Made by a program: the position numbers and the translations under genes. The notes under the pieces were generated by a model. It was not told where the DNA came from. It ran no database searches and saw nothing but the letters and a program-made list of their open reading frames with translations. Shown here piece by piece: positions 3,122 through 8,540 of a DNA stretch of 64,000 nucleotides. The DNA is from Ekhidna sp. (GTDB lineage: Bacteria; Bacteroidota; Bacteroidia; Cytophagales; Cyclobacteriaceae). Position 1 is the first letter of the stretch. Every line of letters begins with the position of its first letter. The stretch covers positions 9,034 through 73,033 of the forward strand of contig NZ_CAXPLV010000012.1 of the NCBI RefSeq assembly GCF_964218185.1, read 5' to 3'.

Positions 3122-5167
3122 ATGTCCAACCCTCTTTTAATTGACTTCAATACTCCATTCGAGCTGCCTCCATTTTCAAAAATATCTACCGAGCACTATG
3201 AGGAGGCCATCGATCAGGCTTTAGAGGAAGCCAAGGATGAGATTCAGAAAATTTTGGATAATACCGATGAACCGGATTTCACCAACGTGATTGAGGCATT
3301 GGAGCAAAGTGGGCAAAAATTGCAACGCAATACTTCGATCCTATTCAATCTAAACTCGGCAGAGACCAACGATCAAATTCAAAAAATTGCACAACAGGTT
3401 TCACCCAAGCTTTCGGCTTTCAGTAGTGAGGTAAAGCAGAACGAGGCACTATTTGCGAAGGTAAAAAAGGTATATAAAGAAAGAGAGTCACTAAATCTAA
3501 ATGCCGAGCAGGAGAAGCTGCTTTGGGAAACATATATCGACTTTGTCAGAAGAGGTGTAGAGCTGGAAGGTGACAAGAAAGAACGATTCAAAGAAATAAG
3601 TATTGAGCTGTCGAAGTTATCCCTAACCTATTCGGAAAATGTGCTTGCCGAGACTAATCAATTTGAGCTGGTCATTACTGACGAGAGTGACCTATCAGGT
3701 ATACCAGCCGATGTAAGAGAACGGGCAAAAGAGCTTGCAACAAAGAAAGGGAAAGCGGGTTCGTGGATATTCACTCTGCAAGCTCCCAGCTATATCCCTT
3801 TTATGGAATACGCAGACAATCGTGAGCTTCGGGAGAAAATGTACAGGGCATACATGTGTAAGTGTCTTAAAGGAGATAGGTATGATAATCAGGAAATCGT
3901 GCTTAAAACTATACGACTCAAAGCAGAGCTTGCTTCTCTTCTTGGCTATCCAACTTTTGCCCACTATGTGTTGGAGCAACGGATGGCTGAATCTCCAGAT
4001 AAGGTGATGACTTTCCTCAATGATCTTTTAGAGAAGAGTTTACCGAAAGCAAAAGAAGAAGTAGAGGAGATCAAAGAGTTCATTAAATCGAGAGGTGAGG
4101 ATATTGAGCTGCAGCGATGGGATTGGGCGTACTATTCTGAGAAACTGAGAAAGCAGAAGTATGAGTTGGATGATGAGTTAGTCAAACCTTATTTCAAGCT
4201 TGAGAATGTAATCGAAGGTGTTTTTGAAACGGCGGAACGACTGTACGATATCACGTTTAAGTCAAATAGCGACTTACCGGTTTATCACGAGGATGTTAAG
4301 GCTTATGAGGTATTGAATAAAGAAGGAGAGGTGATCTCAATTTTCCTTGCGGATTTTTTCCCAAGAGACGGGAAACGAGGAGGAGCATGGATGACATCCT
4401 TTCGAGATCAGGCTAAAAGAGATGGCGAACGAATCATACCTCAGGTAAGCATCGTTTGCAACTTTACTCCATCGTCTTCCAACCACCCGTCTTTGTTGAA
4501 ATTTGATGAAGTAACCACGCTCTTTCATGAATTTGGTCATGCCCTCCATGGCATGCTGGCGGATACTACTTACCAGAGTTTGTCCGGCACGAGTGTGTAT
4601 TGGGATTTTGTGGAACTACCATCTCAGATAATGGAGAACTGGTGCTATGAGAAAGAATGCCTCAATCTATTCGCAAGACATTATCAAACGGGAGAGTTGA
4701 TCCCGGAGGAGTTGATAACCCGAATCAAAGACGCCTCAACGTACCACGAAGCTTATGCTACGGTACGTCAGCTAAGCTTTGGCTTGCTGGATATGGCGTG
4801 GCATAGCCTTTCTCTCGAGGAAGCTTCAAAGATTAGCAGCGTTCCGGCTTTTGAGGATTCAGCTTTTGCGAAAACGGAATTATTCCCAAAAGTGGAGAAC
4901 ACCAATATGAGTGTTCAATTCAGTCACATTTTTGCAGGAGGATATGCTGCAGGATACTACAGCTATAAATGGGCTGAAGTATTGGACGCAGATGGATTTT
5001 CATTATTTCAGGAAAAAGGTGTTTTTGATAAAGAAACAGCCAATTCATTCAAAAATAATATCCTGAGTAGAGGAGGGACTGCCCACCCGATGGAGCTTTA
5101 CAAAAAGTTTAGAGGCAGTGAGCCTTCACCAGAGCCTTTATTAAGGAGAGCAGGATTGATAAAGTAG
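3122..5167 (+). CDS. dcp: M3 family metallopeptidase (peptidyl-dipeptidase Dcp-like)
   Basis: TLFHEFGHALH zinc motif, DFVELPSQIMENW and GYAAGYYSYKWAEVLDAD. Confidence 0.93.
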   Translation: MSNPLLIDFNTPFELPPFSKISTEHYEEAIDQALEEAKDEIQKILDNTDEPDFTNVIEALEQSGQKLQRNTSILFNLNSAETNDQIQKIAQQVSPKLSAFSSEVKQNEALFAKVKKVYKERESLNLNAEQEKLLWETYIDFVRRGVELEGDKKERFKEISIELSKLSLTYSENVLAETNQFELVITDESDLSGIPADVRERAKELATKKGKAGSWIFTLQAPSYIPFMEYADNRELREKMYRAYMCKCLKGDRYDNQEIVLKTIRLKAELASLLGYPTFAHYVLEQRMAESPDKVMTFLNDLLEKSLPKAKEEVEEIKEFIKSRGEDIELQRWDWAYYSEKLRKQKYELDDELVKPYFKLENVIEGVFETAERLYDITFKSNSDLPVYHEDVKAYEVLNKEGEVISIFLADFFPRDGKRGGAWMTSFRDQAKRDGERIIPQVSIVCNFTPSSSNHPSLLKFDEVTTLFHEFGHALHGMLADTTYQSLSGTSVYWDFVELPSQIMENWCYEKECLNLFARHYQTGELIPEELITRIKDASTYHEAYATVRQLSFGLLDMAWHSLSLEEASKISSVPAFEDSAFAKTELFPKVENTNMSVQFSHIFAGGYAAGYYSYKWAEVLDADGFSLFQEKGVFDKETANSFKNNILSRGGTAHPMELYKKFRGSEPSPEPLLRRAGLIK

Positions 5168-5168
5168 T

Positions 5169-6167
5169 CTACAGGTACTCGATTTTTGAATCGATGGACT
5201 TATTCATCCCATCAAGATCCTTTTTCAGGTCGGTGATGAGTTGATCAAGCGCACGCTTTAGTTTCTGTATTTCACTTTGTTTCTCTGGTCTTCCACCGAA
5301 AACACGATCTTTTTCGGAGGGGGAGAGCATGCTGTTAAAGTAGTTGACATCTGTGGCAAGCTTATTTAAAAGTTGTGCCACTTTAGGTAAAAGCGAGAGA
5401 ACCTTGTTTGGATCAACTGTAAGGTCAACCTCAGGTATGTTGTAAAGGATGGCGTTGATTTCAGAATCTTTCAGATCTATTTTCTCATCAGAGTCAGCTC
5501 TGAGGGTCTTAAGCAACCTACTCATGCACTTAAGGTTGCCGTTGGTATGCTGGTCGCGTGCATTGATCCGGGCGATATTGAGGAAAGGCAGGTATTTCTT
5601 TACCTTCTTCTTTGCGAAATCAAACTCGCAGATACCACGATAAATTTCATTTTTAGTTTTCACGTACTCAGCGCTATTGACCCACATCGAAGGAAGTATG
5701 TCAATTTCACAGGTTGGCTTAAGGGCGGTAATTCGAATCCTGGTTTTGTCGCTGTAATCGACAGACTTGAAAGTTGGATCCTTGGAGAGAACGTCAAGCA
5801 TGTCACTCGCAAGTGTCTGCATATCAAGGTGAGGCTTATTGGAAACCACCTTTTTTATGACAATGATCTCAACGTCACCGTAAAGTAGAATATTAGTAAA
5901 TGTCTTTAGTGCGCCCTGATAGCGATAATCAACGTCGTATCCCTTCTTTTTAAGGGTCTTGCTTATCACCTCATGAATACGACGAGAGTTTGCATATACC
6001 TTGTATGCATAAGATGGATCTATTTCCACCATGGACTCCAGAGTGTAGCGAATGCAATCCGAATAACCTGACTGATTAAAAGCATCAGAAAGTACAGGTT
6101 CGCGAAGTGCTTCGTCATACCTTCTTCCTTTCAGGTTTTCTACGAGTAGGCTGTAGTCGTGCTCCAT
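5169..6167 (-). CDS. cGAS/DncV-like nucleotidyltransferase (CD-NTase, CdnE-like), divergent active site
   Basis: Motif order Y..ESM.(E)I.PSY, YRYQGALKTFTNILLYGDVEIIVI (CD-NTase QGSx..TNI...DVD), EIDIL (third acidic residue), LPFLNIARIN.RD..TNGNLK.M.RLLK and INAILYNIP follows CdnE-type enzymes as I recall them. Confidence 0.78.
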   Translation of the reverse strand: MEHDYSLLVENLKGRRYDEALREPVLSDAFNQSGYSDCIRYTLESMVEIDPSYAYKVYANSRRIHEVISKTLKKKGYDVDYRYQGALKTFTNILLYGDVEIIVIKKVVSNKPHLDMQTLASDMLDVLSKDPTFKSVDYSDKTRIRITALKPTCEIDILPSMWVNSAEYVKTKNEIYRGICEFDFAKKKVKKYLPFLNIARINARDQHTNGNLKCMSRLLKTLRADSDEKIDLKDSEINAILYNIPEVDLTVDPNKVLSLLPKVAQLLNKLATDVNYFNSMLSPSEKDRVFGGRPEKQSEIQKLKRALDQLITDLKKDLDGMNKSIDSKIEYL

Positions 6168-6449
6168 TGGGGTGCCAAAATAATCAATTATATAGATATG
6201 AATTGTATTTTTAGAAGATTATCGTTCGAAATCTATTCTTGTTAGACTAAAATTGACGTGAAGTTTAGATACAATAAATGATCTTTTCTGATGTGTTTAA
6301 ATATGAAAAGGACCTTCTAAAATATTGATGTCGTATAAGTATATGCTCGAAGACGATTTTGAAGGAAACAAAGATTTTTACTTTTTTGTATAAAAAATCC
6401 GGGGAGGTAGATCGATTAAATTGAAAAAACTCGCTACAATTGCATTATT

Positions 6450-6545
6450 ATGATTCTTCTTACTGAGATTGTACGAACCACGCCCTCTCGCATCAGAGGG
6501 TAACCCCAAGGCTGGGTAATCTCACTATTCATTTTCTTTTTTAAA
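6450..6545 (+). promoter_or_regulatory. Putative structured leader / uORF attenuator upstream of the MATE gene
   Basis: uORF ATG6450-TAA6503 (MILLTEIVRTTPSRIRG). Outer stem tgagatt (6464-70) / aatctca (6518-24) encloses hairpins ccctct/agaggg and accc/gggt, followed by a T-rich tract. Confidence 0.45.
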
Positions 6546-6598
6546 ATTTCCTAAGCTGCACAACTGAAGCAGCTAATCACATTTAATTTCTTTTAGAA

Positions 6599-8005
6599 AT
6601 GACGAAAGAATCATTCTCTATATCAAGAGTTTTTAGACTCTTTGTTTCCGCCTTGAGAGGAGAGGAAACTGAATTTACCACTGGCAGTATCAATCGTGCC
6701 ATTGTTTTGCTTTCTATTCCCATGATTGCTGAGATGATCGGTGAATCACTTTTTGCAATTGTGGATATGATATTCGTTTCACGGATCAGTGTAAACGCTA
6801 TTGCTACCGTTGCTTTGACGGAAACACCGCTCATGATTATTTATTCGCTTGCGGTAGGTCTCAGCATGGCAGCTACAGCTATTGTGGCGCGTAGAGTTGG
6901 AGAAAAACGACTTGTACGTGCAGCGGATGCAGGCTTTCAGGCCATAGTTATTTCCATTGTTATCGGGATAGTTTTTGGAGTTACCGGGTTCGTTTTTGCC
7001 GATGATATTCTAGCCCTCATGGGAGGGGAGACTGGTTTAATTTCAGAGGGCGTAGGCTATACAAAAATCATGTATGCCGGAAACCTCAGTATCATTCTCA
7101 TCTTCTTGATCAATGGGATATTTAGGGGAGCAGGCAATGCTTCTATAGCAATGAAGTCGCTTTTGCTGGCCAACCTGCTGAATATGATCCTTGATCCAAT
7201 TTTCATATTTGGATTGGGTCCGATTCCTGCCATGGGCATTGAAGGAGCTGCAATTGCAACCACTACCGGACGATCGGTTGGGGTTATATACCAATTGGTT
7301 CACCTATTCAATGGGAGCTCGATTATCCGATTGACGATCAAAAACTTTGTCATTCGGATAAAGACGGTGATTGAAATTATCAAAATTGGCTCTGCAGGTA
7401 TAGGTCAGTTTCTTGTTGAAACATTGAGCTGGCTGTTTCTGGTAAGAATTGTAGCCGAGTTTGGAACGGAGGCTGTAGCGGGCTATCAGCTCGCATTCCG
7501 TGTGATCGTTTTCACATTATTACCTTCATGGGGGATGGCCAATGCGGCAGCTACGCTCGTAGGACAAAACCTTGGGGCTAAGCAACCTGACAGGGCGGAA
7601 ACTTCTGTTTGGCGTACAGCCAAATGGAATACGATCTTCTTGATTTGCGTAGCAATACTTTTCTCGATTTTCTCGCATGAGGTGCTGGCCATTTTTGATC
7701 AATCAGGGGTGGTTCTGAACACCGCAATCCAGGCATTGAGGATTATATGCTTTGGGTACATATTTTTCGCTTATGGGATGGTTATCGGTCAGGCATTTAA
7801 TGGCGCTGGGGATACCTATACACCACTGTGGATCAATATGGTCGTATTTTGGGCGATACAAATTCCTTTGGCCTATGTCTTGTCAATCATGTATGATTGG
7901 GGACCTAATGGAGTGTTTTTCTGTATCGCTTTTTGTCATAGCTTGTACGCTGTGATTGCTATTGTCCTTTTTAAAAGAGGAAAGTGGAAAACCATTGAAG
8001 TGTAG
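6599..8005 (+). CDS. MATE family efflux transporter
   Basis: Twelve-TM pattern; GIFRGAGNA, NMILDPIFIFGLGPIPAMGIEGAAIAT and ATLVGQNLGA motifs. Confidence 0.93.
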   Translation: MTKESFSISRVFRLFVSALRGEETEFTTGSINRAIVLLSIPMIAEMIGESLFAIVDMIFVSRISVNAIATVALTETPLMIIYSLAVGLSMAATAIVARRVGEKRLVRAADAGFQAIVISIVIGIVFGVTGFVFADDILALMGGETGLISEGVGYTKIMYAGNLSIILIFLINGIFRGAGNASIAMKSLLLANLLNMILDPIFIFGLGPIPAMGIEGAAIATTTGRSVGVIYQLVHLFNGSSIIRLTIKNFVIRIKTVIEIIKIGSAGIGQFLVETLSWLFLVRIVAEFGTEAVAGYQLAFRVIVFTLLPSWGMANAAATLVGQNLGAKQPDRAETSVWRTAKWNTIFLICVAILFSIFSHEVLAIFDQSGVVLNTAIQALRIICFGYIFFAYGMVIGQAFNGAGDTYTPLWINMVVFWAIQIPLAYVLSIMYDWGPNGVFFCIAFCHSLYAVIAIVLFKRGKWKTIEV

Positions 8006-8009
8006 GCAT

Positions 8010-8540
8010 ATGAGAAAAATCATTTACTATGTAGCTACTTCTTTGGATGGTTTCATTGCCGGTCGGGATAATGATGTCAGCTTGTTTGCCTCCGATGGAG
8101 AAATTGTGGATCAATACCTGTATGATCTTCAGTCTTTTGATACGGTAATCATGGGCAGAAATACCTACGAGTTTGGTTATCAATATGGCTTGAAACCGGG
8201 TGATCCTGCTTATCCGCATATGGAGCACTACATTTTTTCCAATAGCCTGTCATTCGATTCTCAAAGTGATCAGGTTACTGTGCTGCCCCGTGATATTGAG
8301 AAATTGAAAGCACTAAAGAGTGAGGTTGGAAGTGATATCTACCTGTGTGGGGGTGGCACATTTGCGGGATGGCTCCTGGAAAATGGAATGATCGATGAAG
8401 TGAAGCTGAAAGTCAACCCCATCATTTTGGGTGATGGGGTGAAGCTCTTTGGAGATCAAAGAGCTTCATGCAAGCTCAGGGTGATGTATAATCAAACCTT
8501 TGACGATGGTTTTCAGATAATCACCTATCAGGTGATTTAG
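8010..8540 (+). CDS. Dihydrofolate reductase family / RibD C-terminal domain protein
   Basis: YVATSLDGFIAG, VIMGRNTYE, IYLCGGG and PIILGDG motifs. Start moved to ATG 8010, just after the MATE stop. Confidence 0.88.
   Translation: MRKIIYYVATSLDGFIAGRDNDVSLFASDGEIVDQYLYDLQSFDTVIMGRNTYEFGYQYGLKPGDPAYPHMEHYIFSNSLSFDSQSDQVTVLPRDIEKLKALKSEVGSDIYLCGGGTFAGWLLENGMIDEVKLKVNPIILGDGVKLFGDQRASCKLRVMYNQTFDDGFQIITYQVI

Follow-up and report, generated by a model that had tools for sequence, protein, structure and literature searches.

Bacterial CD-NTases are known as mobile, effector-linked immune enzymes. For pyrimidine-specific enzymes of clade E (CdnE), the residues of catalysis and of nucleoside triphosphate (NTP) binding are Ser53, Asp65/67, Asp139, Lys123, Lys201/202, and Ser220/Tyr221; in pyrimidine-specific CdnE the Asn at the position called lid 1 reads the acceptor uracil, and the equivalent of the residue numbered Gln84 below, together with lid residues 1 and 2, makes base or ribose contacts in CdnE enzymes (PMC10442399). 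The gene described here lies in a stretch of 64,000 nucleotides from Ekhidna sp. (assembly GCF_964218185.1, contig NZ_CAXPLV010000012.1, positions 9,034 to 73,033; hereafter the window, i.e. the whole stretch that was analyzed). It encodes a clade-E CD-NTase homologue, protein P0001, and belongs to a clade of marine Cytophagales that is vertically inherited, effector-less, and catalytically degenerate, yet constrained like its housekeeping neighbors. Its product is probably a non-catalytic pseudo-enzyme of CD-NTase fold, the remodeled cleft of which would bind something and which would act via a partner encoded elsewhere.

The window protein and its active site

The window protein is a member of the CD-NTase superfamily, clade E, by descent. 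It matches the PADLOC Cyclase profile PDLC00807 (E 1.8e-64), and by phmmer and profile alignment its closest solved relatives are the STING-associated CdnE synthases of cyclic dimeric GMP (c-di-GMP) 6wt9 (E 4.6e-29) and 6wt8 (E 3.1e-19). The AlphaFold (AF2) model has a predicted local distance difference test score (pLDDT) of 86 and a predicted template-modeling score (pTM) of 0.85; Foldseek aligns it to 6wt9 with a probability of 1.00 and a template-modeling (TM) score of 0.69-0.74, and the order of its fold matches is 6wt9/6wt8, other CdnE (ranks 3-14), and then DncV, cGAS, and MiD51. An N-terminal R-R-[YF]-D motif and 30% full-length identity are shared with a CdnE from the same taxonomic family, the gene of which is directly upstream of a TIR-STING gene. 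Among 5.8 billion proteins searched, 172 relatives came up; the best 120 of these 172 are 47-92% identical to P0001 and, where named, carry the source labels Ekhidna, Cyclobacteriaceae, or Bacteroidota, and more distant relatives were taken from a search of 1.8 billion cluster representatives. Pfam hmmscan assigned no family to P0001 nor to two orthologues, despite which PF26305 is assigned to many orthologues in precomputed tables, and the NCBIfam scan of P0001 gave a sub-threshold match only. In one source an orthologue (P0037/P0004) is named 'menaquinone-dependent protoporphyrinogen IX oxidase', an evident mis-annotation.

The original prediction, made from the DNA alone, was of a CD-NTase with a non-canonical active site across positions 5592-5912, a span that is exactly codon 192 to codon 86. 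Its codons stand on reading the DNA: Q84 is CAG, G85 GGC, A86 GCA, D98-V99-E100 GAC-GTT-GAG, D156 GAC, and Y192 TAC. So does the placement of the residues, since alignment with 6wt9 and 6wt8 puts QGA under QGS, DVE under DID/DVD, and D156 under the third Asp. Columns were further compared between 26 members of the clade and 111 canonical relatives. Y192 aligns with the Asp of D-[FY]-P-F-L in 6wt9/6wt8, a position that is Asn in 86 and Asp in 21 of the 111 canonical relatives, and the segment after the metal-binding strand is short, as had been claimed: residues 101-150 amount to 49 in the window protein versus 60-62 in most canonical relatives, and to 82-86 in the canonical group that holds the solved STING-associated enzymes. 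The Ser of the GS motif, which contacts the donor phosphates and is required of an active CD-NTase, is A86 here and Ser in all 111 canonical relatives; an acid-x-acid pair is formally present (D98-V-E100; D-x-D in at least 110 of 111), as is D156 at the place of the third acid, but both D98 and D156 are repeatedly replaced in relatives. At other positions that we map to NTP contacts the window protein has A120, T142, C153, and K233-D234-S235, with K220 retained. The gene and the elements of its active site are as follows.

5169-6167, minus strand: CD-NTase clade-E homologue (protein P0001); intact open reading frame (ORF) of 999 bp, 332 aa, monocistronic
5910-5918, minus strand: Q84-G85-A86, canonical Q-G-S; Q and G invariant in the family, the Ser position variable
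5877-5909, minus strand: loop of residues 87-97 between the GS motif and the metal strand; H92 to N, K/R94 to L, S97 to G
5868-5876, minus strand: D98-V99-E100, canonical D-[IV]-D; E100 invariant, D98 replaceable by G or E
5718-5867, minus strand: shortened segment, residues 101-150; canonical R120, K142, and G-G-S-L 148-151 gone
5700-5711, minus strand: third-acid strand C153-E-I-D156; an invariant Cys where canonical relatives have R153, D156 retained in the window
5625-5627, minus strand: E181, a newly fixed Glu; I, V, or L in 110 of 111 canonical relatives
5577-5594, minus strand: start of the lid, Y192-L-P-F-L-N197, with Y192 in K-Y-L-P-F-L; Tyr for Asn/Asp at lid 1, Asn for His at lid 2
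5508-5531, minus strand: lid helix K213...R217...K220; R217 invariant as in the enzymes, K220 variable in the family
5463-5471, minus strand: K233-D234-S235, canonical S-S-[YF] (S in 93, S in 109, and Y or F in 111 of 111 canonical relatives)
5307-5324, minus strand: C-terminal loop S282-P-S284-x-x-D287, re-fixed; D/N284 to Ser, R287 to an acidic residue

The loop of residues 87-97 is the sole segment of the AlphaFold model with a pLDDT below 50. By our own mapping, several of the residues replaced in the clade would be the donor and acceptor NTP contacts of the enzymes (PMC10442399): K220, by residue counting from the alignment, would be the triphosphate-contacting Lys/Arg (K202 of EfCdnE), and S-S-[YF], assigned by motif, would comprise the gamma-phosphate Ser and the donor-stacking aromatic residue.

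Replacement, drift, and constraint across the clade

The changes first pointed out in the GS motif, the metal motif, and the lid are real but understate what has happened, since roughly 20 positions that are near-invariant in the canonical set are replaced throughout a monophyletic clade made up of Ekhidna, Marinoscillum, and related metagenome-assembled genomes (MAGs). The canonical relatives keep S86 and D98 (111/111 each), D100 (110/111), D156 (109/111), and K220 (110/111), i.e. at least 98% conservation at all five; they are also near-invariant at H92, K/R94, S97, R120, K142, G-G-S-L 148-151, R153, N/D192, H197, S-S-[YF] 233-235, D/N284, and R287, with conservation above 80% at S97, R120, K142, R153, SS[YF], and D/N284. 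Newly fixed in the clade are G97, E100, P151, E181 (Glu in 23 of the 26 members), Y192, L193, N197, A199, S282, S284, and an acidic residue at 287, so that Tyr at lid 1 and Asn at lid 2 are clade-wide; C153 is fixed within the Ekhidna/Marinoscillum family set. Both sets have in common R15, Y41, M46, Q84, G85, W162, G178, P194, F195, D205, G210, K213 (K or R in the canonical relatives), R217, and D225. Among the full-length representatives, the eight closest have degenerate motifs and the short segment, and the representatives at 34% identity or less (one fragment left out of the alignment), together with P0129 (39%), carry Q-G-S, S-D-[IV]-D, [RK]-x-x-D, and [ND]-x-P-F-x-H. Strain-specific decay, in which orthologues would have the canonical GS/DxD, is not borne out, as the changes are common to the entire clade.

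Inside the clade, the positions fall into some that drift and some that do not. Parsimony on a 119-tip tree of family members (Fitch counts, which are minimum numbers of changes) gives at least 9 changes at position 86, at least 6 at 98, at least 11 at 156, at least 20 at 220, and 19-21 at 233-235; the count is zero at Q84, G85, G97, E100, C153, E181, and R217, one at Y192, and two at N197. Entropy ranks agree with these counts on the drifting positions: over 89 non-redundant members, 223 of the 332 columns are more conserved than position 86, 137 are more conserved than 98, and 169 more than 156. Between 32 and 40 columns are invariant in the family alignments. The conservation in orthologues that the original prediction had asked about is found for E100 and Y192 and not for A86, the position of which holds A, E, P, D, or G, or in rare cases S. 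D98 is replaced by G or E and D156 by N, S, H, K, T, or R; in the Ekhidna branch D98 is kept in 72, D156 in 69, and K220 in 54 of 77 sequences, and in Marinoscillum-type proteins the three sites are QG[AP] / G-V-E / Lys or Asn, which leaves whole genera with one of the three acids. Since an active enzyme would not tolerate losing the Asp of a metal ligand to Gly, Lys, Asn, Ser, or His, this pattern speaks for a protein that is no longer an active enzyme; such replacements are never seen in the far more divergent canonical relatives.

Several observations weigh on the other side. The acid-x-acid pair and the third Asp are still present in the window genome and in most Ekhidna sequences, Q84, K213, and R217 are retained as well, and D-x-E occurs in some active nucleotidyltransferases of the Pol-beta fold. 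The invariant E100 and the newly fixed E181 could be 'migrated' catalytic residues, and judged from the sequences some residual or altered catalysis may persist in the Ekhidna branch. The Ekhidna-type protein (DxE plus D156) might then be a stand-alone nucleotidyltransferase with an altered product or a non-nucleotide acceptor, working with a site rebuilt around E100 and possibly E181. Neither of these two residues shows a substitution in the parsimony counts, and the cleft-side residues have been re-fixed rather than randomized, which would fit a new specificity just as well as binding. We nevertheless hold such an enzyme to be unlikely, because replacements of D98 and D156 have accumulated without gene loss or relaxed selection, the triphosphate and acceptor contacts of CdnE are gone (S86, K142, R153, SS[YF]) or vary (K220), the genera with a single acid keep the gene, and no receptor or effector is linked to it. 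Among the options of the original prediction (a changed product, nucleotide transfer to an acceptor that is not a nucleotide, or a pseudo-enzyme or decoy), the drift of A86, D98, and D156 and the loss of the canonical NTP-contacting residues favor the pseudo-enzyme and count against an altered cyclic-nucleotide product.

That the gene is not decaying, and is under strong purifying selection, is evident from its coding sequence. The ratio of nonsynonymous to synonymous substitution rates (dN/dS) against the closest relative (92% identity, from a metagenome assembly) is 0.030 (NG86) or 0.049 (YN00), in the range of four neighbors (the M3 peptidase, the MATE transporter, MscS, and an 896-aa protein; 0.024-0.052); this relative was used because dS is saturated between species-representative genomes. 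All 49 full-length named loci have an intact ORF of 328-364 aa, no match of the genus search has an internal stop, and of 36 genomes in the genus 35 carry the gene, the one without it being 87% complete. The earlier argument from an intact ORF against simple decay is upheld by these values. What is seen is the operational picture of a pseudo-enzyme: a fold kept under purifying selection, with catalytic motifs lost or unconstrained.

Genomic context and contrast with CBASS

The proposal that this is the CD-NTase of a defense system is not supported by its surroundings, as the gene lies outside any operon of an antiphage signaling system based on cyclic oligonucleotides (CBASS) and has no effector. 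In place of a cyclase-effector operon there is a single gene between a convergent M3 peptidase gene and a divergent MATE gene.

3122-5167, plus strand: M3-family peptidase (Pfam Peptidase_M3), convergent; a syntenic anchor, not an effector
6168-6598, no strand: spacer of 431 bp to the MATE gene, without a same-strand upstream gene
6599-8005, plus strand: MATE transporter, divergent; a syntenic anchor

The stop codon of the peptidase gene ends one base before that of the CD-NTase-like gene. No Rfam match was found in the spacer and flanks, where scans for promoters and terminators were uninformative. Beyond the MATE gene, the longest ORF of a RibD_C-like gene (window 7956-8540) starts at TTG and overlaps the MATE 3' end by 50 bases; the version annotated in the closest relative is shorter, at 176 aa, so that the real start probably lies downstream.

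A conserved block is made up, in this order, of the DUF3352 protein, MATE, CD-NTase-like gene, M3 peptidase, and MscS. The majority of 12 orthologue loci taken from elsewhere in the genus keep it, as do most of 50 named loci, down to 35% identity; the 50 are from Ekhidna, Marinoscillum, or MAGs of Cyclobacteriaceae, Roseivirgaceae, or Flammeovirgaceae. One contig with the complete Cytophagales block, PBTY01000073.1 (L065), is labeled 'Rickettsiales bacterium' and has Marinoscillum-like identities of 50% and 66%; it is probably mis-binned, or the MAG mislabeled. Pairwise identities of the CD-NTase-like protein and the adjacent peptidase are correlated (Pearson 0.93, Spearman 0.86, over 946 non-independent pairs), with the former diverging faster, at about 40% identity where the peptidase has about 60%. 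Strong matches (E <1e-100) occur in about 23 of 201 sampled genomes of the GTDB family, from about 14 genera, and every strong-match genus with two sampled genomes has the gene in both; another 21 families of the order were sampled with 24 genomes, and the gene was found in none of these. Counts across related genomes are not independent. Across the clade the gene is single-copy and at one fixed locus, and it is a vertically inherited chromosomal gene without the patchy, mobile distribution typical of CBASS.

A related genus that lacks the gene keeps the block of MscS, peptidase, and MATE, and has an unrelated 193-aa gene at the site, on which ground a CBASS ancestor at the syntenic site in that genus was rejected. 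The same genus has a true CdnE with a TIR-STING gene about 10 kb from the block, which may be coincidence.

No conserved partner gene was found beside the orthologues. The neighbors inserted there vary by lineage (in some a 275-aa protein, elsewhere hydrolases and an enolase-type protein), and since the inserts differ between lineages there is no conserved operon partner. The gene for the 275-aa protein (L027:7179-8006, L031:9062-9889), absent from the window genome, separates the CD-NTase-like gene, with which it is convergent, from the peptidase gene; judged by eye, its product looks like an S1/CvfB-type RNA-binding protein. TIR-STING was not found in the window genome, which is 99.9% complete, with a query that found its targets in three control genomes; a SAVED search of the window genome was uninformative, the control genomes giving no match either. 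No homologue of P0001 was found in phage records, and all relatives found in plasmid records were canonical ones with an identity of at most 26%.

Genuine CBASS operons have a patchy occurrence in the same family; they carry canonical QGS/SDxD/D motifs, and the gene directly downstream codes for a patatin or TIR-STING. A type-I CBASS in a genome of the same genus (G021; L033:8045-10017) consists of a 351-aa CdnE, with QGS / SDID / third Asp / N-Y-P-F, and a patatin-like phospholipase of 305 aa directly after it. Upstream of it are three large genes, one of them AAA-ATPase-like (422 aa), in what looks like a defense island. Operons of CdnE and TIR-STING are found in genomes G126 (L089:7353-9370) and G245 (L087:8095-10052); the former is about 10 kb from the MscS/peptidase/MATE block, and the latter adjoins a tyrosine-recombinase (integrase) gene and has a TIR-STING 97% identical to that of another genus (G236), indicating recent horizontal transfer.

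This contrast bears on whether the protein might still serve immunity. A dead CD-NTase could be kept as a decoy or as a sensor of a phage trigger or an anti-CBASS protein, with its partners elsewhere, in keeping with descent from a CBASS cyclase, a fold under purifying selection, and a conserved cleft. We regard this as quite improbable for a gene with a core-gene distribution, a single copy at a fixed locus among housekeeping genes, and co-divergence with its neighbors; its dN/dS of about 0.03-0.05 is without the fast turnover typical of immune genes, phage records hold no homologue, and plasmids carry distant canonical relatives only. A decaying CBASS remnant on its way to becoming a pseudogene, for which the missing effector and the degenerate catalytic residues might be cited, is scarcely credible given the intact ORFs in the 49 full-length loci and the 35 genomes of the genus, the absence of internal stops, the low dN/dS, the 32-40 invariant columns, and retention down to 35% identity.

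Origin, proposed role, and known systems

The tree recovers the clade as monophyletic with a support of 1.0, and a long stem of 0.71 substitutions per site leads to it. A canonical sequence is sister to the clade, and the mean path length of the clade from their shared node is about 2.5 times that of this single sister; under midpoint rooting the Ekhidna branch splits first. The nearest canonical relatives from the same family are CdnE genes directly followed by TIR-STING genes. As the simplest history we propose that the ancestor was a clade-E CBASS cyclase of a lineage that pairs with TIR-STING effectors in Bacteroidota, and that it may have been captured between the MATE and M3 peptidase genes in an ancestor of Ekhidna and Marinoscillum, Cytophagales. 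The effector would have been lost at some point, and the cyclase then remodeled and retained. Cyclic oligonucleotide synthesis is most likely gone from the non-catalytic protein that we favor, with the two-lobed CD-NTase cage kept. The floor of the catalytic site (the GS Ser, the first and third acids, K220, and SS[YF]) drifts in the family, and the residues frozen or newly fixed (Q84, G97, E100, C153, E181, Y192, N197, R217, S282-P-S284, and the acidic residue at 287) would lie on the lid side, to judge by their location in characterized CdnE enzymes.

From the conservation of the cleft we infer that it binds a ligand and that the protein acts downstream of this binding. The ligand would most plausibly be nucleotide-like or a base-containing small molecule, because in the enzymes Gln84 and the two lid positions touch base or ribose, and because K213 and R217 are still present; the output would go through a partner encoded elsewhere. 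A more specific version is that a domesticated CBASS cyclase senses a new small molecule with its rebuilt cleft, which would be formed by E100, C153, E181, Y192, N197, and the S-P-S loop, and regulates host physiology via an unlinked partner. This we offer tentatively, as possible rather than probable.

If the pseudo-enzyme reading is true, the gene would be a clear case of a bacterial immune enzyme co-opted for a role outside immunity, or at any rate outside catalysis. It will also be miscounted as CBASS, since defense finders score it as a 'cyclase', as in the PADLOC match given above. The clade can further be read as a natural mutational scan that separates the CD-NTase positions required for the fold from those required for catalysis.

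Like 6wt9/6wt8 and the TIR-STING CBASS CdnE of the same family, the window protein has the Pol-beta core, the helical lid, and P-F after lid residue 1. Unlike them, its gene is effector-less, vertically inherited, and not mobile; the protein reads QGA and DVE in the motifs, Tyr and Asn occupy lid 1 and lid 2, R120, K142, R153, and SS[YF] are missing, and its post-DxD segment is 13-37 residues shorter. With RmCdnE, ClCdnE, LpCdnE, and EfCdnE (PMC10442399) it shares the fold and can be aligned at the Gln of QGS and at both lid positions; it differs in that the catalytic and NTP-binding positions, as we map them, would be replaced or varying in the window family. A full-text literature search turned up no account of a CD-NTase pseudo-enzyme in bacteria, nor of an orphan clade passed on vertically, which is not proof of absence.

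Parallels in principle come from eukaryotic proteins of the cGAS/Mab21 fold. MiD51/MiD49 and MAB21L1/2 are without transferase activity, and they resemble the predicted state of the window protein in that a CD-NTase-type fold is kept without nucleotidyl transfer. MiD51 is among the fold matches (ranks 15, 18, and 22, one of the entries bound to ADP) at 13-14% identity. Unlike MiD51 and MAB21, the window family has an independent origin from a bacterial clade-E cyclase, with no specific sequence relationship to either, and its ligand is one that we would predict from the conserved cleft. If the pseudo-enzyme reading is true, the clade would be a bacterial parallel to the fate of the same fold in animals (Mab21/MiD51).

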